A stretch of 64,000 nt of DNA, taken from assembly GCA_964392865.1 (NCBI GenBank), contig CAYMRJ010000003.1, forward strand, positions 24,591 to 88,590, read 5' to 3'. Source of the stretch: an uncultured Staphylococcaceae bacterium (GTDB lineage: Bacteria > Bacillota_I > Bacilli_A > RFN20 > CAG-826). The translations under genes were made by a program, and so were the position numbers. The notes beneath the pieces were generated by a model. It ran no database searches. It saw only the letters and a list, made by a program, of their open reading frames with translations, and was not told where the DNA came from. This document shows, in pieces, positions 396-40,770 of this stretch. How positions within the stretch are numbered: the stretch's first letter is position 1; every line of letters begins with the position of its first letter.

Positions 396-1157
396 CTAAA
401 GATGCTCGGCGAAGCGGGCGAATTGCTCGGCCCAGTAGCGCTCCCGATGCCCATGGCCGGCGAAAATGGCGGCATCTTCGAGCCTGGCGCCCGAGGCCTT
501 CAATAGTTCTGCGTAGCAGCGGTAATCGTTCAAAAAGAGGTCGCCGCTAAGGCCGCCGTCGCCTTCGTTATCGCCGACATAGAGGCAATAGATGGCCTCG
601 AGGTCGGTCCCGAGGCTCCGGAAATCGCTTTCGAATTGGCGCCCGATCATCGAGTAGGCAAGGGAGAAAATGCCGAACTTCCCGAAGACGCCTTTATGGA
701 CGAGGGCGCAATAAGCGGTAATAAGGGCTCCCAAGGAGGAGCCGGCCATATAGGTGAAGTCCTTCCCCGGAAGGGTCCGGTAGCGGAAATCGATCAACGG
801 CTTCAGATACGAAACGATGAAATCGAGGTACTCTTCGCTTAAGGAATCCGAGATATTCCGGACCCTCGGCTCCCCGGTTTCGAGGCTATGGGGGCAATAT
901 TCCTGGCTCCTATTGGGGCTGCAGTCGATCCCGACGACGATGATCTCCTTCCCCAATCTGGCGAGGGTCTTCGTCACGTCCCAGGACTGGCCGCTCAGAT
1001 CGGCTTTCCTGACGATGTTCTGGCCGTCATGCATGTAAAGGACGGGGTAGCGCTTGCGGCTATCCTTGGAATAGCTCTTCGGGAGATAGACGCGGACGCA
1101 TTTGTCGTATCCGAGCGCCCCGCTATAGACCCAAAAGGAATCTTCCCTTTTGCCCAT
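396..1157 (-). CDS. alpha/beta-hydrolase, putative esterase family
   Basis: 253-aa ORF with YPVLYMHDGQN and nucleophile elbow GSSLGA. It lies 50 nt upstream of glgB on the same strand. Confidence 0.7.
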   Translation of the reverse strand: MGKREDSFWVYSGALGYDKCVRVYLPKSYSKDSRKRYPVLYMHDGQNIVRKADLSGQSWDVTKTLARLGKEIIVVGIDCSPNRSQEYCPHSLETGEPRVRNISDSLSEEYLDFIVSYLKPLIDFRYRTLPGKDFTYMAGSSLGALITAYCALVHKGVFGKFGIFSLAYSMIGRQFESDFRSLGTDLEAIYCLYVGDNEGDGGLSGDLFLNDYRCYAELLKASGARLEDAAIFAGHGHRERYWAEQFARFAEHL

Positions 1158-1163
1158 GGCGAA

Positions 1164-1172
1164 ATTCTAACA
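1164..1172 (-). promoter_or_regulatory. extended -10 box (TGtTAGAAT) 6 nt upstream of the esterase ATG; leaderless-type promoter candidate
   Basis: The minus strand reads TTTTTGTTAGAATTTCGCCATG. No Shine-Dalgarno lies between the box and the ATG at 1157. Confidence 0.4.
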
Positions 1173-1226
1173 AAAAAAGCCCTACTAAGGTAGAATCTAG
1201 CCGCTAAGACAAGGAAAACGAAAAAT

Positions 1227-2432
1227 ATGAAAGTCATGGCCGTCAACGCCGGCTCCTCGAGCCTCAAGTACAAGCTCTTCGAGATGCCGGAAGAAAAAGT
1301 CCTCTGCGCTGGCATCGCCGACCGCATCGGCCACGAGGACGCCATTTTCAAAATCGAGCACGATGGGAAAACCGAAAAGAAGATCCTCCCCATCAATGAC
1401 CACGCCACCGGCGTGAAGCTCATCATCGATGCCCTATTGGAGAAAGGCATCGTCAAGAGCCTCGAAGAAATCGAGGTCGTAAGCCACCGCGTCGTCCAAG
1501 GGGGCAGCTACTACTCCCATTCCGTCATCTTTGATGACGATGCCGAGCAGAAGATCGCTTCGCTCGCCCCGCTTGACCCCCTCCACGCCCCGGCGCACCT
1601 CATCGGCTACCACGCCTTCAAGGACGCTCTCCCCAATGCTTTGGAAACCGCCGTCTTCGATACGGCCTACCACCAGAGCATGGAGGAAGAAGACTATGTC
1701 TTCCCTATTCCCTACGAACTTGCCAAGAAGCACCAGATCAGGAGATACGGGGCCCACGGGACGAGCCACCACTACCTCATCGACAAAGCCATCAACGACT
1801 ACTTCGGCGGCAAGGCCTTAGGGACCCGCATCATCAGCTGCCATATCGGCTCCGGGGCCTCCCTTACGGCCGCTAGGGACGGCAAGTGCGTCGCCACTTC
1901 CATGGGCCTCACCCCCCTAGGCGGCGTCATGATGGGGACCCGTACCGGGGACCTCGACCCTTCCGTCATGAGCCATATCGCGAACGTCGAAGGCCTCACT
2001 GCCGACGAGGTCTACGACATCTTCAACAAGAAGTCGGGCCTACTAGGCCTTTCTGGCATCAGCAACGATACCCGCGATATCGAAGAGGAAGCCTTCAAAG
2101 GAAACGAAAGGGCCATCCTCGCCTCCAAGGTCTTCGCGAGAAGGGTCGCCGATTATATCGGCCAGTATTTTGTGAGGCTCGGCGGAGCCGACCTCATCAT
2201 CTTCTCGGCCGGGATCGGCGAGAATAGCTCTTACTACCGCGCCCTCATCCTCAAGGACGTCGAAGAGGCTTTGGGCCTCGTCGTCGATTACGACATCAAC
2301 GAAGAGCTCGTCCACGGGAAGGAAGGTCTATTGACCAAGAAGGAAAGCAAGATCCCGGTCGCCGTCATCCCGACCGACGAAGAAAAGATGATCGCGAGGG
2401 ACGGCTATCTCATCAAGACGGGGAAACTATGA
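1227..2432 (+). CDS. ackA: acetate kinase
   Basis: 401-aa ORF with MKVMAVNAGSSSLKYKLF, HRVVQGG, YGAHGTSH and EEKMIA, typical of AckA. AAGGAAAA lies upstream. Confidence 0.95.
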   Translation: MKVMAVNAGSSSLKYKLFEMPEEKVLCAGIADRIGHEDAIFKIEHDGKTEKKILPINDHATGVKLIIDALLEKGIVKSLEEIEVVSHRVVQGGSYYSHSVIFDDDAEQKIASLAPLDPLHAPAHLIGYHAFKDALPNALETAVFDTAYHQSMEEEDYVFPIPYELAKKHQIRRYGAHGTSHHYLIDKAINDYFGGKALGTRIISCHIGSGASLTAARDGKCVATSMGLTPLGGVMMGTRTGDLDPSVMSHIANVEGLTADEVYDIFNKKSGLLGLSGISNDTRDIEEEAFKGNERAILASKVFARRVADYIGQYFVRLGGADLIIFSAGIGENSSYYRALILKDVEEALGLVVDYDINEELVHGKEGLLTKKESKIPVAVIPTDEEKMIARDGYLIKTGKL

Positions 2433-3424
2433 TGAAGGACCCGATCATCAAGGCCTACGGCCGTAAGTTCAAAAAGGAATACAAGGCCTTCTACAAGGCC
2501 ATCCGGGAATTTAAGCGCATCTTCGTCTTCCGCCACATAAAGCCGGACTTCGATGCCCTCGGTAGCCAATTCGGTTTGGTCACTTTCCTCAAGGACAACT
2601 TCCCCGATAAGGAAATCCACTTCGTGGGCGATGACCACGTGACCTTCTGCCCCCGGATCTTCCCCTACACCGAGCGCCTCGGCGAAGAGGCTTTCGAGTC
2701 TGACTTCCTCGCCATCATCTTGGACGTGAACGACCATAGCCGCATCGCCGATCCACGCTACCAAAAAGCCAAGCGGATCATCAAATTCGACCACCACCCC
2801 TGCAAGGAGCCGGTCGGCCATATCAACATCCTCGATACCGAAGCGGCCGCCGCGGCCGAAATCCTCACCGATGCTTTGCTCTCCTTCCCCGGGACCTACA
2901 TCAGCCCGGAAGCCGCGAAGTACCTCTACATCGGGATCGTCGGGGATTCGGGAAGGTTCCAATATAGCAGCACTTCGGCCCATACCTTCGCCTGCGCCAG
3001 CGCTCTCATTGCTAGGGACATCAGCCTTCCCAGCATCTACCAGAGCATGTACCAGAAGACGACGGAGGATCTGAAGATCCAGGCCTATGTCCTCACCCAC
3101 TACTCCATCAGCGAGCACGGGGTCGCCTACTACCTTTTGCCCGAAAAGGTCCAGAAGGACTTCGGCCTCACCTCCGAAAGGGGCAAGGAAAACGTCAACA
3201 TGTTCTCCAATATCGAAGGGATCAACGTCTGGTGCTCCATCACCGAGGACAATGACCCGAAGGATTACTGCTGGCGCGTCTCCATCAGAAGCAAAGCCAA
3301 GGACATCTCCGGCGTCGCCCAGAAGTGGGGCGGCGGCGGACACGCCCAAGCCAGCGGCGCCAGAATCGACGACATCAAGGACCTCGAGAAATTCGTCAAG
3401 GACCTCGACGACCTCTTCGCCTGA
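2429..3424 (+). CDS. nrnA: DHH/DHHA1 phosphoesterase (NrnA-like oligoribonuclease / pAp phosphatase)
   Basis: 331-aa ORF with DFD, DHH (KFDHHP) and GGGH (WGGGGHAQASG) motifs. It overlaps the ackA stop by 4 nt. Confidence 0.75.
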   Translation: MMKDPIIKAYGRKFKKEYKAFYKAIREFKRIFVFRHIKPDFDALGSQFGLVTFLKDNFPDKEIHFVGDDHVTFCPRIFPYTERLGEEAFESDFLAIILDVNDHSRIADPRYQKAKRIIKFDHHPCKEPVGHINILDTEAAAAAEILTDALLSFPGTYISPEAAKYLYIGIVGDSGRFQYSSTSAHTFACASALIARDISLPSIYQSMYQKTTEDLKIQAYVLTHYSISEHGVAYYLLPEKVQKDFGLTSERGKENVNMFSNIEGINVWCSITEDNDPKDYCWRVSIRSKAKDISGVAQKWGGGGHAQASGARIDDIKDLEKFVKDLDDLFA

Positions 3425-3432
3425 GTTCAAAC

Positions 3433-3463
3433 AAAAAGAAGGGCCCTTATGGGCCCTTTTCTC
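3433..3463. terminator. bidirectional intrinsic terminator between convergent nrnA and the serpin gene
   Basis: Stem-loop AAGGGCCC-ttat-GGGCCCTT (3439-3458) is flanked by an A-run on one side and a T-run on the other. Confidence 0.7.
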
Positions 3464-3470
3464 ATATTCC

Positions 3471-4964
3471 CTAGGCAGCGGGATCGCTCACGTAGCCGAG
3501 GAATATCGGGAGATCGGAGAGATCGCGGATGCAATAGACGAAGGGTTGGTTCAGCTGGACGCTCCAGCCTTCGCTCATCGGGCCGGCGTCCGCAGCCCCG
3601 AAGCCGAAGCTGATGCTGAGGCTCTTGGCCTTGGTGCCGTCTTCGTTGAACTCGATGGAGTTCTTCTGTTTGATGCGACTGAGGCCGGACTCGACCACGA
3701 TACCGGCGTTATCGTAGGCCCCGGCCATGTGGTTGGCCTCTTCTTCGAAGGGATTGGACAGACCCATATCGATGAGGACGTCGGTCAGATCGACCTCGCA
3801 GTCATAGGAGAAGCGCGGGACCTCGAGGGCGATGTAATCGTAGTCGGCCTCCTCGGATTCGCTAAGGAAGTCCACTCCCTCGAGAAGGGTCAATATATCG
3901 TCTTCCAGCTCCTTCGGGACGAAGTACTGGATCGAGTAGCCGGACTGGTAATAGTCGCTGAAGGTGACGTAATCCCCGCAATCCTCGAACAATCCATAGA
4001 AAGTATGGTTCATGTATTCGATTTCGTAGGGATCGCCCTCGAGGGGATAGAAGTAATCGGTGACGTTGTCCTCCGCGGCGAAGGCATCGCTCCAAAGCGA
4101 TTCGAAGCTTAGCGTCGACATGAGCAGAAGCGTGTCTTCGTCCGTAAGCCCGAGTTGATCGGCTGTCACATAGCCATCTTCCCCGACGGCTTCGCTGGCC
4201 CAGGTGGCGATGAGTTCCTGATCGTCCTTGCTCGATAGATCGGCTTCATAGACCTCGGCCCTCCTAGCGGTCGCATCGCTGACGAAGGTTTCGGCGGCCC
4301 CAAGTTCGTAATCGACAAAGGCGGCCTGCTTCATGAGGACGCTGCTTTCGCCGCGCGCCCCTGATTCCGAAATGTAGTAGTTATTGAGAAGCGCCGTCTT
4401 GATGTTCTCGGCCCGGCTTTCTTTGGTCCCACCGAGGATAAGGTCGAACTGGGCTTCCGTTTCTTCGTCGCCCTCCGTAACGGCGAGGGAGGCCAGATCC
4501 ATGTTGGCATATAGCCCTAAAGGCGAATAAAGGGCATTGTCCGAGAAACCGCTGCTATGGAAGAGATTCTCGGCGAAGGTATTTACGTCGGCGATGAAGC
4601 CGTCGTCTTCGATGGCCGTATGGAGCGTATCCGTATCGTATTCGATGGCGTTCATGGCCCTAAAAGTCGCGCTTTTGAGTTCGCTGGCCTGGCCGGAAGT
4701 TAGGTTCAGGTTCTCACGGCTCAGCGTTTCGCTATAGCCGATGTCGGCGAAGGCGATGACGACGATGGCAAGCGGCACGACGAAAGCGGCAGCGGCCGCT
4801 CCGGCGACGGTATAGACGCCGAGCCTTGCGGCCCGATAGGGATTAACGTAGCCGGCCTTCCCGTGGTAAGGATTTAGGCCGCTTGCTTCCATCATCGCGT
4901 TAACGTCGAAGGAAACCCCGTATTCCTCAAGGTAGAGTTCCCTGATCTTCTTTTCGGCTTTCAT
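3471..4964 (-). CDS. single-pass membrane protein with extracytoplasmic serpin domain (candidate anti-sigma factor)
   Basis: 497 aa. A short N-terminus is followed by a hydrophobic helix (LGVYTVAGAAAAAFVVPLAIVVIAFA). Serpin landmarks follow: NALYSPLGLY, TLSFESLWSDAF, ALEVPRFSY, hinge FNEDGTKAKS and LNQPFVYCIRD. The ATG overlaps the sigma gene stop (ATGA), and GGAGGA lies 9 nt upstream. Confidence 0.75.
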   Translation of the reverse strand: MKAEKKIRELYLEEYGVSFDVNAMMEASGLNPYHGKAGYVNPYRAARLGVYTVAGAAAAAFVVPLAIVVIAFADIGYSETLSRENLNLTSGQASELKSATFRAMNAIEYDTDTLHTAIEDDGFIADVNTFAENLFHSSGFSDNALYSPLGLYANMDLASLAVTEGDEETEAQFDLILGGTKESRAENIKTALLNNYYISESGARGESSVLMKQAAFVDYELGAAETFVSDATARRAEVYEADLSSKDDQELIATWASEAVGEDGYVTADQLGLTDEDTLLLMSTLSFESLWSDAFAAEDNVTDYFYPLEGDPYEIEYMNHTFYGLFEDCGDYVTFSDYYQSGYSIQYFVPKELEDDILTLLEGVDFLSESEEADYDYIALEVPRFSYDCEVDLTDVLIDMGLSNPFEEEANHMAGAYDNAGIVVESGLSRIKQKNSIEFNEDGTKAKSLSISFGFGAADAGPMSEGWSVQLNQPFVYCIRDLSDLPIFLGYVSDPAA

Positions 4965-5479
4965 AGGTAGTCTTCCTCCTTCAAGGCCTTTTTGGCCTTG
5001 GCAAGGGCCCGCCGATAGAGGCTTCTGGCCGCGCCTTCGCTAATCTCCATCGAGGCGGCGATATCCCTGAAGGGATAGCCGGCCCCGGCCCGGAGGGTAA
5101 GAACGTCGTACTCCTTCTTGAGAAGGACGCCCTTTAGGGCATTTAGCCCGTCGGTCGAGTAGCTTCTCTCAGGGATCTCGGCGGAGGGTTCGCTTTCCGG
5201 GTATTCTTCGAGGCGGCTATTTTTCCTGACGCGGCTAAGGGCGGCGTTCTGGGCGCTCCTATAGAGATAGGAAACGAAGGCCTTTGGGTCCTTGGGAGGG
5301 TCGTCGGCTTTTAAGGATGAGGCGAAGGCTTCCTGGACGCAGTCCTTGCTTTCTTCCTTGTCATGGAGGATCTCGTAGGCGCCGTGGTAAAGAAGGCGCG
5401 CATATTCCGCGTAGACGAAAGAAACGGTCCTTTCGTCTTTCTGGAAGTAGAGCCTCACGGCCCTTTTATCGAGCTGCAT
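4961..5479 (-). CDS. sigma-70 family (ECF-like) RNA polymerase sigma factor
   Basis: Region 2-like YAEYARLLYHGAYEILHDKEESKDCVQEAF and region 4-like EYDVLTLRAGAGYPFRDIAASMEISEGAARSLYRRAL. I prefer the ATG at 5479 (GGAGGG 9 nt upstream) over the ORF-track start at 5521. Confidence 0.8.
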   Translation of the reverse strand: MQLDKRAVRLYFQKDERTVSFVYAEYARLLYHGAYEILHDKEESKDCVQEAFASSLKADDPPKDPKAFVSYLYRSAQNAALSRVRKNSRLEEYPESEPSAEIPERSYSTDGLNALKGVLLKKEYDVLTLRAGAGYPFRDIAASMEISEGAARSLYRRALAKAKKALKEEDYL

Positions 5480-5536
5480 GCCGATTGTCCCTCCACCCAT
5501 ATAGACGCGGAAGGGGCGCAAAACGTGCGCGGAAAT

Positions 5537-6247
5537 TTATTTTCCCGCCGTTTTGGCTTTGTTCAGGGAGACCTGGTAACCGCATTTCGGGCATTTGTAG
5601 TAGGGCCCGTAGCGCCCTTTCTTCTCCTCCATTCCGACCTCGCAATGGGGGCAGATGCCCTTCCTAATTTCCTTCTGCTTCTTCTTGATGGCCTTCACAT
5701 GGCCCTTTTTGTCGGGGTTTTCGATGGCGAGGCCTTTGATCTTCCCTTCGAGGGCGAGACGCTCTTCATAGGTCAAAGCCTTTTCCTTATGGCGAGCGAA
5801 GAACTTCCCTATTGCCTGAAGATTGATGACCTCGTCCATCCCCTTCGGGGCGTTGTTCGAAGCGAAGACGACCAAAGCCTTGGGCTCGGCGGCCCCTTCG
5901 CCCAAAAGTTCCTTCAGGACATGGCAATGGGCCAGATTTTGCCTCAGCGGCGAATAGAAGCGGTTTTCCTGCTTTCCGAGGTATTGGACCCACTTCTCGT
6001 AGGTTGGCGACCCGGAGATCTTCCCGGCGTAGTTCTTGGTTTCGACGCAGTAAAGGCCGCTATTATGGATGGCGATATGGTCGATCTGGCAGGTCGACCC
6101 GTCGGCTTTTAGGAAATACAAATCATCGAGGACGAGGCACCCGGCCTTCTTCAAGGCCTTCGAGACCCTCTTTTCCCCGCGCTTGCCCTTGCTTTTGGCA
6201 AGGACGGGCTTCATGAGAAGCATGATTACGTCAGTGAAAACACCCAT
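5537..6247 (-). CDS. NERD (nuclease-related) domain protein with C-terminal topoisomerase-type zinc ribbon
   Basis: 236 aa with GEKRVSKALK...IDHIAIHNSGLYCVETKNYAGKI (NERD-like) and CPHCEVGMEEKKGRYGPYYKCPKCGY (C4 ribbon). Confidence 0.65.
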   Translation of the reverse strand: MGVFTDVIMLLMKPVLAKSKGKRGEKRVSKALKKAGCLVLDDLYFLKADGSTCQIDHIAIHNSGLYCVETKNYAGKISGSPTYEKWVQYLGKQENRFYSPLRQNLAHCHVLKELLGEGAAEPKALVVFASNNAPKGMDEVINLQAIGKFFARHKEKALTYEERLALEGKIKGLAIENPDKKGHVKAIKKKQKEIRKGICPHCEVGMEEKKGRYGPYYKCPKCGYQVSLNKAKTAGK

Positions 6248-38145: not shown

Positions 38146-40770
38146 ATGGCAAACACCAAGATAAGGCTCCTGGGGCTAGCGGCCATGTTGGCTCTGGCCG
38201 GCTGCGGGGGCGCAACTGGAGAGGGGGGGGCTTCGAGCGAAGAAGATAGCGTAAGCGAAATTTCTTCCGAAAGCTCCGATACCCCGATCGAATCGGATTC
38301 GTCCGATAGCCCGGAAGAGACTTCATCTTCCACCTCGAGCGTCATCCAGACCGTCTACGAAGTCGGCGACATGACGTTCGAACTCGACGATTCGGGCGAA
38401 TTCCTCATCCTCACCCAAGTAACGCCCGGAAGCGAAACCCTCGAAATCCCGGAGTCCATCAACGGAATCCCCGTCAAGGAAATCGCCTCTGGCCTGGCCC
38501 TTACGGAAAATACGACCGTCAAGACCCTCATCGTCCCCGATAGCGTCGAAACGATCGGCTCCTTGGCCTTCTCCATCTTTACCGCTCTGGAGGAAATGAC
38601 CCTTCCTTTCATCGGGCAGACGATCGAAAGCACGACGGCCACGATGTCATACCTCTTCGGAGGAACCGGCTACGGGGTCAATTCGCTCTACGTCCCCGAC
38701 ACCCTGACGAAGATCACCGTCACCAAAGGCGATGCCAACGAACGCTGCTTCTGGGGCCTGACGTCCCTCCAATCGGTTAGCATCGGCGGCAGCACGATCA
38801 GGGAATACGCCTTCTATGGCTGCACCGGCTTGACCGAAGTCATCTTCACCGGCGAAGTAACCGAGATCCAAAGCTATGCCTTCCAAGCCTGCACCTCGCT
38901 CGTCGATTTCGATCTTCCCTCGACCCTCGTAACCCTTGAGTCATATGCCCTATGGAATACGGCTCTCACGTCCTTGACCATTCCCGCGGGCCTAAACGAA
39001 TTCGTCTTCCATAACGAAATCCCCACCCTAGCCAGCATCGGCGTTGCCGAAGGCAATGAGACCTACGCTTCCGTCGACGGCGTCCTCTTTACCAAGGACC
39101 TATCGACCATCGTCACATATCCCAGAGCCAAGGAAGGCACGACCTACGACATTCCGGACGGAACGACGGTGATAGGCGATCGGGCTTTCTATAACACGAC
39201 CTATCTCGAAGAAGTCGATCTCGCTGGCATAACATCCATCGGGACCCAAGCCTTCTACAATGGAAGCATCAAAAGGGTCTCCTTGCCTACTACCTGCACC
39301 GAAATCGGACGGACCGCCTTTAGTACGCTCACGCTAGAAAGCTTCGAGTTCGCAGAAACGCTCGAAGGAGCAGACGAGCTGACCCTCAACCCGTTCTTCA
39401 TGTCTTCGACGACAGGCCTAACATCCATCACCTTCCCCGAGTACGTGAAGGAAATCCCCGATTACGCCCTCAGCGGCTGCGAAACCCTAACGGAAATCAA
39501 CATCGAAGGGACGCTTCGCCGCATCGGCTACGTCGCCTTCGCCAGTACTTCGATCACCACGCTAACGGTAACGCTCGAAAGAGACGCCACCATCGGCGAG
39601 AGGATCTTCAATAACTGCCCCTACCTGACGACCTTCTACATCAAGCTCGCCGACGGCGGGACGGGATATCCGACCTTCGAGGACGAAACCGGCTTCGGAA
39701 GCAACGTCCCCTCCATCGTCGTCGAAGACCAGGAAACGGCCGACGGTCTCTCGGAGGCTTGGAGCCAATACGCTTCCTACATCTCCACCGAGTCTACCGA
39801 CTTCGTCATCGAAGACGGCATCCTAGAGGCCTATAACGGGACCGACGGAACCGTCGTCATCCCCGACGGCGTCACGGGCATTGCCGCCCAGGCTTTCAGC
39901 AATTCCGGGATCATCGAGCATATCACGGTTCCCTCAAGCGTCGAGACGATCGGCTATCGGGCCTTCTATTACTGCGAAAGCCTGGTTTCCGTGACCTTCG
40001 AGCACGAAAGCTTCGAGGACTTCTCTCTACTAAATTCCTCTGGCACCGCGGTAACGAACGGATTCAGCAACGTCTTCACCGGGATCTATCCTGCCTACCT
40101 CTTCCAAAGCGAAGACGCCAAGGCTTCCTTCATCACGGCAACCGGAGCAGGCGTCCTCTACCAAAGGACCTTCTACATCGAGAGCGAAACGAAGATCGAG
40201 GGAAACGAAGTCTATAGCGCCGATGGCACATCTCTATTGAAGAGCATCACGGGTGCCGCCGAATACGCCGTGGAAGACGGCGTCACCGAAATCGGGGCCT
40301 ACGCCTTCTACAACGACGAGACTCTGACGAGCATCGATTTCAACGGTGTCGAGACCATCGGGAACTACGCTTTCAACAAAGCGGGCCTTACTTCCCTATT
40401 CCTCGGCGAAAAGATCGGTTCGATCGGCTCAAGCGCATTCTCCGACTGCGAAAGCCTCGAAACCGTCGTCATCGAAGGCCCGGCGGAAATCGGAAGCAGC
40501 GCCTTTGCCGAATGCGAATCAATCGACGCCTTCGACTTCGGCGACAATACCGTCTCGATCGGAAATGCGGCCTTTACCAACGCCTTCGACGGCCTGAATT
40601 CGGTAATCCTTCCTGCCAGCATGGAAAATATCGCCGAAAGCGCCTTCGAAGATTCCGGGGCCAGCACGGCCTACTGCTGCTTCTCCGAAGAGTATGCCAG
40701 CAACACCTTCGATGACGGGACCGCATTCGCGGATTACATAAACGCCATCTACGATTACGTTCCGGAATAA
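38146..40770 (+). CDS. surface lipoprotein with BspA-type leucine-rich repeats
   Basis: 874 aa with a signal peptide and lipobox (LALAGC) and an acidic/Ser-rich linker. Many repeats follow, of the form IPDSV..IG..AF..C..L..V. AGGAGG lies upstream. Confidence 0.8.
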   Translation: MANTKIRLLGLAAMLALAGCGGATGEGGASSEEDSVSEISSESSDTPIESDSSDSPEETSSSTSSVIQTVYEVGDMTFELDDSGEFLILTQVTPGSETLEIPESINGIPVKEIASGLALTENTTVKTLIVPDSVETIGSLAFSIFTALEEMTLPFIGQTIESTTATMSYLFGGTGYGVNSLYVPDTLTKITVTKGDANERCFWGLTSLQSVSIGGSTIREYAFYGCTGLTEVIFTGEVTEIQSYAFQACTSLVDFDLPSTLVTLESYALWNTALTSLTIPAGLNEFVFHNEIPTLASIGVAEGNETYASVDGVLFTKDLSTIVTYPRAKEGTTYDIPDGTTVIGDRAFYNTTYLEEVDLAGITSIGTQAFYNGSIKRVSLPTTCTEIGRTAFSTLTLESFEFAETLEGADELTLNPFFMSSTTGLTSITFPEYVKEIPDYALSGCETLTEINIEGTLRRIGYVAFASTSITTLTVTLERDATIGERIFNNCPYLTTFYIKLADGGTGYPTFEDETGFGSNVPSIVVEDQETADGLSEAWSQYASYISTESTDFVIEDGILEAYNGTDGTVVIPDGVTGIAAQAFSNSGIIEHITVPSSVETIGYRAFYYCESLVSVTFEHESFEDFSLLNSSGTAVTNGFSNVFTGIYPAYLFQSEDAKASFITATGAGVLYQRTFYIESETKIEGNEVYSADGTSLLKSITGAAEYAVEDGVTEIGAYAFYNDETLTSIDFNGVETIGNYAFNKAGLTSLFLGEKIGSIGSSAFSDCESLETVVIEGPAEIGSSAFAECESIDAFDFGDNTVSIGNAAFTNAFDGLNSVILPASMENIAESAFEDSGASTAYCCFSEEYASNTFDDGTAFADYINAIYDYVPE
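38223..38230 (+). repeat. homopolymeric G8 tract in codons 26-29 of the LRR lipoprotein gene
   Basis: It reads gaGGGGGGGGct. I noticed no comparably long G/C run elsewhere in the window. Confidence 0.95.

Follow-up and report, generated by a model that had tools for sequence, protein, structure and literature searches.

What does a membrane-anchored serpin do when its gene lies directly behind the gene of a sigma factor? This arrangement occurs in a 64,000-nucleotide stretch of DNA (hereafter the window) from an uncultured Staphylococcaceae bacterium of gut or rumen (GenBank assembly GCA_964392865.1, contig CAYMRJ010000003.1, positions 24,591 to 88,590 of the forward strand). An initial annotation, made from the sequence alone, proposed that the two genes form a protease-sensing anti-sigma module. 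We analyzed the pair, its relatives in other genomes and the explanations that compete for it. The best overall explanation, to which we give a probability of roughly 0.6, is that the serpin protein is an anti-sigma factor that releases its sigma factor upon attack by a protease.

Results

A sigma gene coupled to the gene of a membrane-anchored serpin

The sigma gene and its junction with the serpin gene are laid out as follows.

4961..5479, minus strand: sigma gene of the sigma-70 family, extracytoplasmic function (ECF, group 4) type, 172 aa, with Pfam Sigma70_r2 and Sigma70_r4 and TIGR02937
5489..5494, minus strand: ribosome-binding site (RBS) of the sigma gene, GGAGGG, 9 nt ahead of the start codon at 5479, read from the sequence
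4974..4979, minus strand: RBS GGAGGA of the serpin gene, within the 3' coding end of the sigma gene and 10 nt upstream of the serpin ATG
4961..4964, minus strand: ATGA stop/start overlap with translational coupling, the sigma TGA at 4963..4961 and the serpin ATG at 4964..4962

Counted from a TTG, the sigma open reading frame (ORF) spans 4961..5521; our reading of the sequence places the actual start at the ATG at 5479, and the resulting 172-aa protein agrees with an independent gene call on a public contig that encodes an identical protein. The ECF-like assignment made at first reading is borne out by Pfam Sigma70_r2 (E=5.6e-12, residues 37-103), Sigma70_r4 (E=4e-7, residues 135-175, both in the numbering of the 186-aa ORF) and the NCBIfam model TIGR02937, sigma70-ECF, at 69 bits against a cut-off of 42.9 (E=3.6e-19). 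The 172-aa protein consists of regions sigma-2 and sigma-4 only; the absence of region 3 makes it an ECF sigma. Its closest solved structures are ECF sigmas as well (6in7_B, 8z6g_B and SigW, 5wuq). It is not a SigV equivalog, scoring 32 bits against a cut-off of 190. The overlap of the sigma stop with the next start and the GGAGGA within the sigma 3' end, both reported in the initial annotation, are present on the minus strand, and a terminator scan found no minus-strand terminator between the two genes.

The second ORF (3471..4964, minus strand) encodes a protein of 497 aa, arranged as follows.

4824..4964, minus strand: cytoplasmic N-terminal tail, residues 1-47, the proposed sigma-binding (anti-sigma) element, from comparative analysis
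4746..4823, minus strand: single transmembrane (TM) helix, residues 48-73 (LGVYTVAGAAAAAFVVPLAIVVIAFA), from Kyte-Doolittle analysis and an AlphaFold (AF2) model
4587..4745, minus strand: juxtamembrane linker or stalk, residues 74-126, from the alignment, the N-termini and AF2
3480..4586, minus strand: extracytoplasmic serpin domain, residues 127-495, from Pfam PF00079, AF2 and Foldseek

The outer domain had been called a serpin from five landmark peptides, and all five are present in the order given. Pfam Serpin PF00079 covers residues 127-495 at full length (profile positions 3-370 of 370) with E=2.2e-32 and 113.1 bits, against a cut-off of 27. The AF2 model, built from 21 homologues, has a pLDDT of 75.6 overall and 80-93 across most of the core, with a pTM of 0.71; in Foldseek it matches solved serpins with E values down to 3e-25 and target-normalised TM scores of 0.70-0.83. 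The segment L48-A73 is the top Kyte-Doolittle window (2.58) and the sole strongly hydrophobic one, and AF2 places a helix at 42-72. Behind it, confidence is low at 69-88 and a helix follows at 90-97; the stalk pattern S-x-K-x-x-R-x-[YF]-S...F..LN.I.Y is kept across the family, tail-less members included. The signal peptides or lipoboxes at the start of tail-less homologues mark the serpin domain as exported, which makes the tailed forms N-in, C-out. Comparison thus argues strongly for the predicted single-pass topology, in which about 47 residues stay cytoplasmic and the serpin faces outward; the earlier claim of one helix behind a tail of about 45 residues was close.

The sigma gene goes with the tail

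If the two proteins work together, the pair should recur. We scanned one genome per species and obtained 50 related loci that encode serpin relatives, called ORFs in all of them, and queried these with the window sigma by phmmer. All 50 loci belong to uncultured Bacilli of rumen or gut, under the labels Bacilli, Erysipelotrichaceae, Enteromonas or Onthovivens. A serpin was counted as tailed when an N-terminal extension of 40-56 residues precedes the TM helix, and a locus as assessable when the upstream DNA is present. In 39 of 39 assessable loci with a tailed serpin, an ECF sigma gene lies immediately upstream on the same strand; this count includes locus L044, whose divergent sigma escaped phmmer. 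In contrast, none of the eight tail-less homologues (in L014, L030, L031, L035, L039 and L045, and two in L047) has an upstream sigma; their N-termini are signal peptides, lipoboxes or short anchors. The split (39/0 versus 0/8) corresponds to a Fisher p of about 3e-9, uncorrected for shared ancestry. The sigma is therefore tied to the tail and not to the serpin domain.

The junction is conserved along with the pair. After start-codon refinement, the stop/start distance in the related loci is about -14 to +5 nt, mostly an ATGA overlap, and most of these loci have a GGAGG-type site inside the sigma 3' end. The prediction that the pair would be conserved in relatives has thus come true in 39 other species-level genomes, and this conservation rules out a chance adjacency or a gene-call artefact. 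All-against-all clustering of the flanking ORFs found nothing but the two genes conserved in the neighbourhood; the pair behaves as a mobile two-gene unit, like sigma/anti-sigma pairs. As is typical of membrane-bound anti-sigma factors, the genes are adjacent, ATGA-coupled and conserved as a pair, with no internal terminator.

Two of the surveyed loci hold damaged or partial versions. The exception among the tailed loci is L029 (8..550), where the sigma gene of an otherwise intact pair has an in-frame TAA (…LKMY*RRTSF…), which a pseudogene or a sequencing error may explain. A 102-aa ORF in L048 (3376..3684) encodes only the C-terminal part of a serpin, from the hinge to s5B, plus a C-terminal TM helix, and is probably a remnant; transposase-like ORFs lie about 2 kb off (679..1205, minus strand).

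The tail is a candidate anti-sigma element

The conserved part of the tail comprises residues 1-32 (MKAEKKIRELYLEEYGVSFDVNAMMEASGLNP), with AF2-predicted helices at 2-15 and 21-27; I7, L10, Y11 and F19 of the window protein are conserved positions. The zinc-finger motif HxxxCxxC, reported absent in the initial annotation, was found in 0 of 36 tails, and no class I anti-sigma domain of the zf-HC2/RsrA-like kind is recognizable.

A homologous tail occurs outside the serpin family. L014, where the serpin lacks a tail, has 2 kb away a homologous ECF sigma gene that overlaps by 4 nt the gene of a 445-aa protein; this protein starts MKRTEKQFKTYMEKNL and continues with one TM helix and then Pfam RsgI_M (E=9e-22). 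RsgI_M corresponds to SEAL, an autoproteolytic domain known from anti-sigma factors of the RsgI type (PMC10556640, PMC10328401). Tailed proteins of this SEAL type stand directly behind an ECF sigma gene in L014 and L053, overlapping it by 4-8 nt, and in L052, 6 nt after it; a lipoprotein SEAL-type member in L055 has no sigma. When 45 serpin tails were aligned with 12 SEAL-type tails in hhalign, they matched over 33 columns with a probability of 95.8% (P=7e-9). The score was 32.9, and none of 100 column-shuffled controls scored above 14. A hidden Markov model (HMM) of the SEAL tails places the serpin tails above 99% of 771 other ORF N-termini. The common pattern is M-x-K-x-x-K-x-[FLI]-K-x-x-[YFLM]-E-x-x-[VL]-(5)-[YF]-x-x-[IVL]-x-x-[KR]-[IVL].

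The SEAL family itself (L014, 8100..9952, minus strand; L052, 1949..3850; L053, 2005..3826) keeps the DVNPS autocleavage motif. The proteins of these three loci have no RsgI_N, and their partner is an ECF sigma, not SigI. L053 has a second SEAL gene, for a tail-less lipoprotein, just upstream of its sigma gene.

We then compared how the parts diverge. In 36 pairs, tail distances correlate with sigma distances at r=0.94, versus r=0.88 with the serpin core of the same polypeptide. By partial Mantel tests, sigma and tail remain correlated once the core is accounted for (r=0.71, p=0.0002), while core and tail given the sigma give r=0.12 (p=0.055). Eighteen control segments of 40 columns from the serpin core behave in the opposite way, averaging 0.12 against sigma and 0.55 against the remaining core. 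The tail co-evolves with the sigma, its divergence tracking the sigma rather than the serpin core to which it is joined. This co-evolution, and the restriction of the tail family to proteins encoded directly behind an ECF sigma, make it most likely that the two-helix tail binds the sigma and holds it inactive at the membrane. Judging from these comparisons, the protein is probably an anti-sigma factor.

A probable common promoter for the pair

The operon is bounded by two further features.

5499..5530, minus strand: ECF-type promoter-like motif, GCGCACGTTTT (-35-like, 5520..5530), 12 nt, then CGTCTATAT (-10-like, 5499..5507)
3439..3458, minus strand: intrinsic terminator of the two-gene operon, AAGGGCCC-ATAA-GGGCCCTT then CTTTTTGTTT, from the terminator scan

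Gibbs sampling on 225-nt regions around 37 sigma starts returned a two-block motif of fixed spacing directly upstream of the RBS in about 35 of the 37. The -35-like block differs by sigma clade (CGAACGTTTT, ACGACAAAA or TGCACCAAAA), and the -10-like block is (C/T)GT(C/T/A)T(T/A)AT. In the window the motif falls in the 57-nt gap behind the preceding gene, equals that of L020 and L002 in sequence pattern and spacing, and is the sole exact match to GMACGTTT-N13-YGTMTA within the 64 kb. A position weight matrix (PWM) scan of the loci gave one strong match per locus, in front of the sigma gene, including L041, which was outside the training set; it gave no convincing second promoter sites. One other site in the window was considered as a regulon promoter and rejected, having two mismatches, within chance expectation. 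ECF operons that regulate themselves usually carry such a motif, with a GAAC-like -35 and a CGTC-like -10 block, ahead of the sigma gene; its use by this sigma we infer. The comparison across loci strongly suggests that a single ECF-type promoter, under autoregulation, drives both sigma and serpin protein, whose translation is coupled.

Recurrence in other serpin lineages

A full HMMER search with the family profile against 1.84 billion representatives found a long tail and a TM helix in 83 of the best 150 representatives at 50% identity. We looked at three more TM serpins. In two of them, P0193 and P0196, the tails look unrelated and the hinge, EKGCEAAAFT, is near-canonical; each is encoded directly behind an ECF sigma gene. 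A third, P0138, is a diverged member of the window family with the hinge REDGTTATS and a tail like that of L044, likewise directly behind an ECF sigma gene. The loci of P0193, P0196 and P0138 are L056 (1956..3970), L058 (2031..4048) and L061 (1435..3515). The tail of P0193 is predicted as two long helices (2-19 and 21-39), and L058 has a promoter-like TGCAACC...AGTATTATAT upstream of its sigma gene. Among the other relatives, the multi-serpin proteins P0142, P0155, P0171, P0189 and P0198 are about 1000 aa long and contain two or three serpin domains; P0155 ends in a C-terminal dockerin, which marks it as a cellulosome-attached serpin.

Reactive loop and proposed mechanism

A protease would meet the protein at its reactive loop.

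3555..3644, minus strand: hinge and reactive-centre loop, residues 441-470, EDGTKAKSLSISFGFGAADAGPM463-SEGWSVQ, from hinge statistics and loop length

The putative bait is A-G-P-M463, and the AF2 model shows an exposed segment at 454-466 with low confidence. A related motif, [AGSE][AGSE]-P-[MILFV], stands 7-9 residues ahead of LNQPF in 19 of 47 family members. The P1 methionine of alpha1-antitrypsin has the same P' spacing as this family motif. Since the P' spacing is that of alpha1-antitrypsin, it is the P side that holds the extra 5-6 residues. Counted from P17, M463 as the putative P1 comes 23rd, where the canonical P17-P1 stretch has 17 residues. A longer P side is expected to weaken the trapping of a protease and still to allow cleavage-driven insertion. 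In the family hinge P17 E, P15 G and P14 T/S are conserved, and the positions that would be buried in sheet A are small (P14 T/S, P10 S, P8 T/S and P6 A/S), so that loop insertion is not obviously blocked.

The AF2 model of the window protein looks loop-inserted, with a strand at 443-453 after s5A, and nearly all of its top Foldseek matches are latent or cleaved serpins. A pre-inserted, relaxed loop was nonetheless rejected as a reading of this model: the near-canonical control P0193 was modelled likewise. The loop-inserted look appears to be a tendency of the method with shallow alignments and uninformative on the native state, and the conformational state of a serpin should not be inferred from such AF2 models.

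From these parts we propose the following course of events. The exported serpin would present its bait loop to serine proteases outside the cell, in gut or rumen. Once attacked there, the ectodomain would be destabilized, by covalent trapping, by cleavage with loop insertion or by overwhelming degradation, and the juxtamembrane part would then be trimmed. A site-2 intramembrane protease would cut the TM stub, the tail would be degraded in the cytoplasm, and the freed sigma would transcribe the operon again and possibly unlinked regulon genes too. Each serpin molecule consumed would in this way trigger its own replacement; if serpins are consumed one for one, the inhibitor is replaced as it is used. 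Whether protease attack on the serpin domain is the physiological signal we regard as an even bet. A stronger form of the idea is tentative and in our estimate rather doubtful: the serpin mechanism itself would be the transmembrane signal, one protease hit clearing one serpin and freeing exactly one sigma, so that hits are counted stoichiometrically and the suicide inhibitor is resynthesized in proportion, a device recruited more than once (in at least one further lineage).

Points against and rival explanations

Several observations weigh against an anti-sigma serpin that is released by proteases, and the hinge is one of them. The inhibitory consensus is ExGTEAAAA, with A, G or S at P12-P9 (PMC8233489). 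The window has E-D-G-T-K-A-K-S-L, with A-K-S-L at P12-P9, and the family is mostly V-K-S-V/L (P12 V/I/A, P11 K/R, P10 S, P9 V/L/I). From hinge to LNQPF the family modally counts 30 residues versus 24 in alpha1-antitrypsin, beyond the canonical length. As a canonical comparison for loop length we used the serpins of L047 (4132..6632), tandem lipoproteins with the hinges EKGTRASAAT and EDGTKAGAAT and no sigma, from a metagenome-assembled genome of the Acutalibacteraceae. By sequence, then, the window domain may be a poor inhibitor or non-inhibitory.

Other points concern the release step and the tail. A cut in the loop, at residue ~463 of 497, does not free the ectodomain from the membrane, nor would it alone make the ectodomain short enough for a site-2 protease, so that an extra site-1 step is needed near residues ~74-120; in the scanned parts of the 64 kb window we saw no site-1 activity, site-2 protease or target protease. 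A second promoter site or further regulon member was not found in the 64 kb either. The tails match no curated anti-sigma family in Pfam or NCBIfam at E<=10 (chance matches only), a search of PDB profiles with the combined tail alignment returned only chance matches to coiled coils and no solved structure, and the SEAL-type proteins that bear the homologous tail are themselves uncharacterized. The family-wide positive-inside bias is modest (4.8 K+R ahead of the TM helix versus 3.2 behind it). P0199, a TM serpin with a long N-terminus, has no adjacent sigma. Similarity to an experimentally characterized anti-sigma factor, RsiV of Bacillus subtilis, is only suggestive: RsiV N-termini (the sequence used is 97% identical to P0201, B. 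subtilis RsiV) align with the serpin tails in the same register, and hhalign gave P=0.0024 with a probability of 12%, a score that no shuffle reached, by a small margin. We therefore treat kinship with RsiV as a lead and did not adopt it.

The initial proposal of a protease-sensing anti-sigma module has thus stood in one half, and none of the outcomes that it named as refuting was observed. Tail-sigma co-occurrence, tail homology, co-evolution, the promoter and recurrence all speak for an anti-sigma architecture; the sensing half meets a non-canonical hinge and a loop about 6 residues longer than usual.

These same features favor the alternative that survives best, an anti-sigma factor whose serpin ectodomain is non-inhibitory and senses a ligand or partner, as hormone-carrier serpins do, or envelope stress via its folding state. 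A modest Pfam serpin score fits this picture too (113 bits, against 286 for the near-canonical P0193 and 268 for P0199), and non-inhibitory serpins that exploit the stressed-to-relaxed (S-to-R) change are known (PMC8233489). However, the even-numbered hinge positions are small, a substrate-like A-A-P-M/I/F bait recurs at alpha1-antitrypsin-like P' spacing, the independent sigma-coupled serpins retain a near-canonical hinge, and the habitat, gut and rumen, is rich in proteases. On balance we find this alternative unlikely.

Still less probable is that the protein is an ordinary membrane-anchored inhibitory serpin and merely a target of the upstream sigma, its tail being the long n-region of a signal anchor and the sigma being controlled in some other way. 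ECF sigmas often transcribe neighbouring effector genes, and the missing match to curated anti-sigma domains would be expected of such a tail. But this explanation leaves three things unaccounted for: the occurrence of the tail only with a sigma (39/39 versus 0/8), the homologous tail on unrelated sigma-coupled SEAL-domain proteins, and a tail divergence that follows the sigma and not the serpin core. Nor is any other candidate anti-sigma gene conserved in the neighbourhood.

That the module guards against the cell's own secreted proteases, with excess endogenous surface activity freeing the sigma in place of host or community proteases, is very improbable: some bacterial serpins are thought to protect surface assemblies and the dockerin-bearing P0155 is among the relatives, but no protease gene is conserved beside the module in the 50 loci or present in the scanned window parts, and the idea differs from the anti-sigma serpin released by protease attack solely in the source of the protease.

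Neighbouring genes

The product of the gene directly upstream of the pair (5537..6247, minus strand) has a nuclease-related (NERD) domain (Pfam NERD, 1.9e-25), a C4 zinc ribbon at its C-terminus and weak similarity to the N-termini of BREX PglW and of MADS6 defence kinases. The gene is not conserved beside the module in other loci. On the other side, the GC-rich hairpin at 3439..3458 sits between the serpin gene and a convergent DHH-family gene (2429..3424, plus strand) and could terminate both transcripts; its T-run was scored by the scan in the minus orientation only. Farther away, 38146..40770 (plus strand) encodes an 874-aa protein with five blocks of BspA-type leucine-rich repeats (Pfam LRR_5, 2.4e-91), probably a surface protein. 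The remaining scanned window is housekeeping: DnaE, PolA, an Fpg-CoaE fusion-like ORF, PFK, PK, ThrRS, EzrA, TyrRS and GroEL.

Discussion

The anti-sigma serpin proposed here adds a new type of sensor domain to the ECF sigma/anti-sigma system and is widespread among uncultured Bacilli of gut and rumen. Pairs of this kind are a major route of transmembrane signalling in bacteria, and few of their sensor domains have a known direct ligand. If our reading is true, the serpin sensor is a mechanistically transparent case: the fold itself suggests both the input, a serine protease, and the event, attack on the loop, and purified parts would suffice to test them. The protein would then be the first bacterial serpin with a regulatory and non-secreted role, and would point to how uncultured small-genome Bacilli of gut and rumen cope with host and community proteases. 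Should signalling be stoichiometric as well, bacteria would be using the serpin fold for signalling in a way that has no described precedent. The compact module, one promoter and two genes, and its apparent orthogonality between clades could serve as a protease-responsive genetic switch. The short conserved tail, which SEAL-type proteins also carry, defines an uncatalogued putative anti-sigma element that current domain libraries miss.

The suspicion in the initial annotation that a serpin-type anti-sigma factor is new fits what we found: the openly searchable literature (subscription journals lay outside the scope) holds no description of the architecture, and the literature searched holds no report of a bacterial serpin with a cytoplasmic tail and TM helix or behind a sigma gene. 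The text of the serpin superfamily survey (PMC8233489) never uses the word "sigma", and the main text of the ECF reclassification paper, to which this check was confined, never uses "Serpin". Characterized bacterial serpins (miropin, the siropins, the Bifidobacterium longum serpin, tengpin, thermopin and the cellulosomal dockerin-serpins; PMC8233489) have in common with the window protein the fold, the E-x-G-T hinge, the C-terminal NQPF and export, and several come from gut or oral commensals that face host proteases (PMC8233489). They differ in being soluble, lipoprotein or dockerin-attached inhibitors with a canonical hinge.

Among anti-sigma factors, the class II domains CnrY and NepR (PMC8103513) are likewise very short, two-helix (here by prediction) and zinc-free; we liken the tail to them by description only. 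The RsgI/SEAL anti-sigma factors of Firmicutes (PMC10556640, PMC10328401) come closer: in the same uncultured Bacilli, SEAL-type proteins have a homologous tail and related ECF sigmas, both families also occur as tail-less lipoproteins without a sigma, and both ectodomains can be cut and yet stay associated via a continuous beta-sheet. Unlike RsgI, the window protein has no RsgI_N or SEAL (RsgI_M) domain detectable with Pfam or NCBIfam, and it is paired with an ECF sigma instead of SigI. SEAL domains cleave themselves, whereas the serpin loop would be cut by an external protease. In SigE-RseA/DegS and SigW-RsiW/PrsW, activation likewise proceeds by proteolysis of the ectodomain and then a site-2 protease, as proposed for the serpin; in those systems the site-1 protease is a dedicated, stress-activated cellular enzyme, whereas here the initiating protease would be the environmental signal.

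By analogy, the regulatory logic would be closest to that of SigV-RsiV of B. subtilis, Clostridioides difficile and Enterococcus (PMC4183432, PMC5014341, PMC6066255). There too, an ECF sigma shares its transcript with an anti-sigma factor that crosses the membrane once, N-in, and carries a short zinc-free tail; the tail motif M-x-K-x-L-x-x-L-K-x-x-Y...P-x-x-[LY] stands in the same register (nominal P=0.0024, too weak to establish homology). The window ectodomain is a serpin in place of DUF4179/DUF3298/DUF4163, and its presumed ligand is a protease in place of lysozyme; the protein may act in the manner of RsiV but does not belong to the RsiV family. RsiV binds lysozyme directly through its ectodomain and only then becomes a substrate of signal peptidase (PMC4183432, PMC6066255), which supplies its site-1 step. 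In both systems, as we propose it for the serpin pair, an ectodomain recognizes a hostile host hydrolase, regulated intramembrane proteolysis follows, and the operon is autoregulated.

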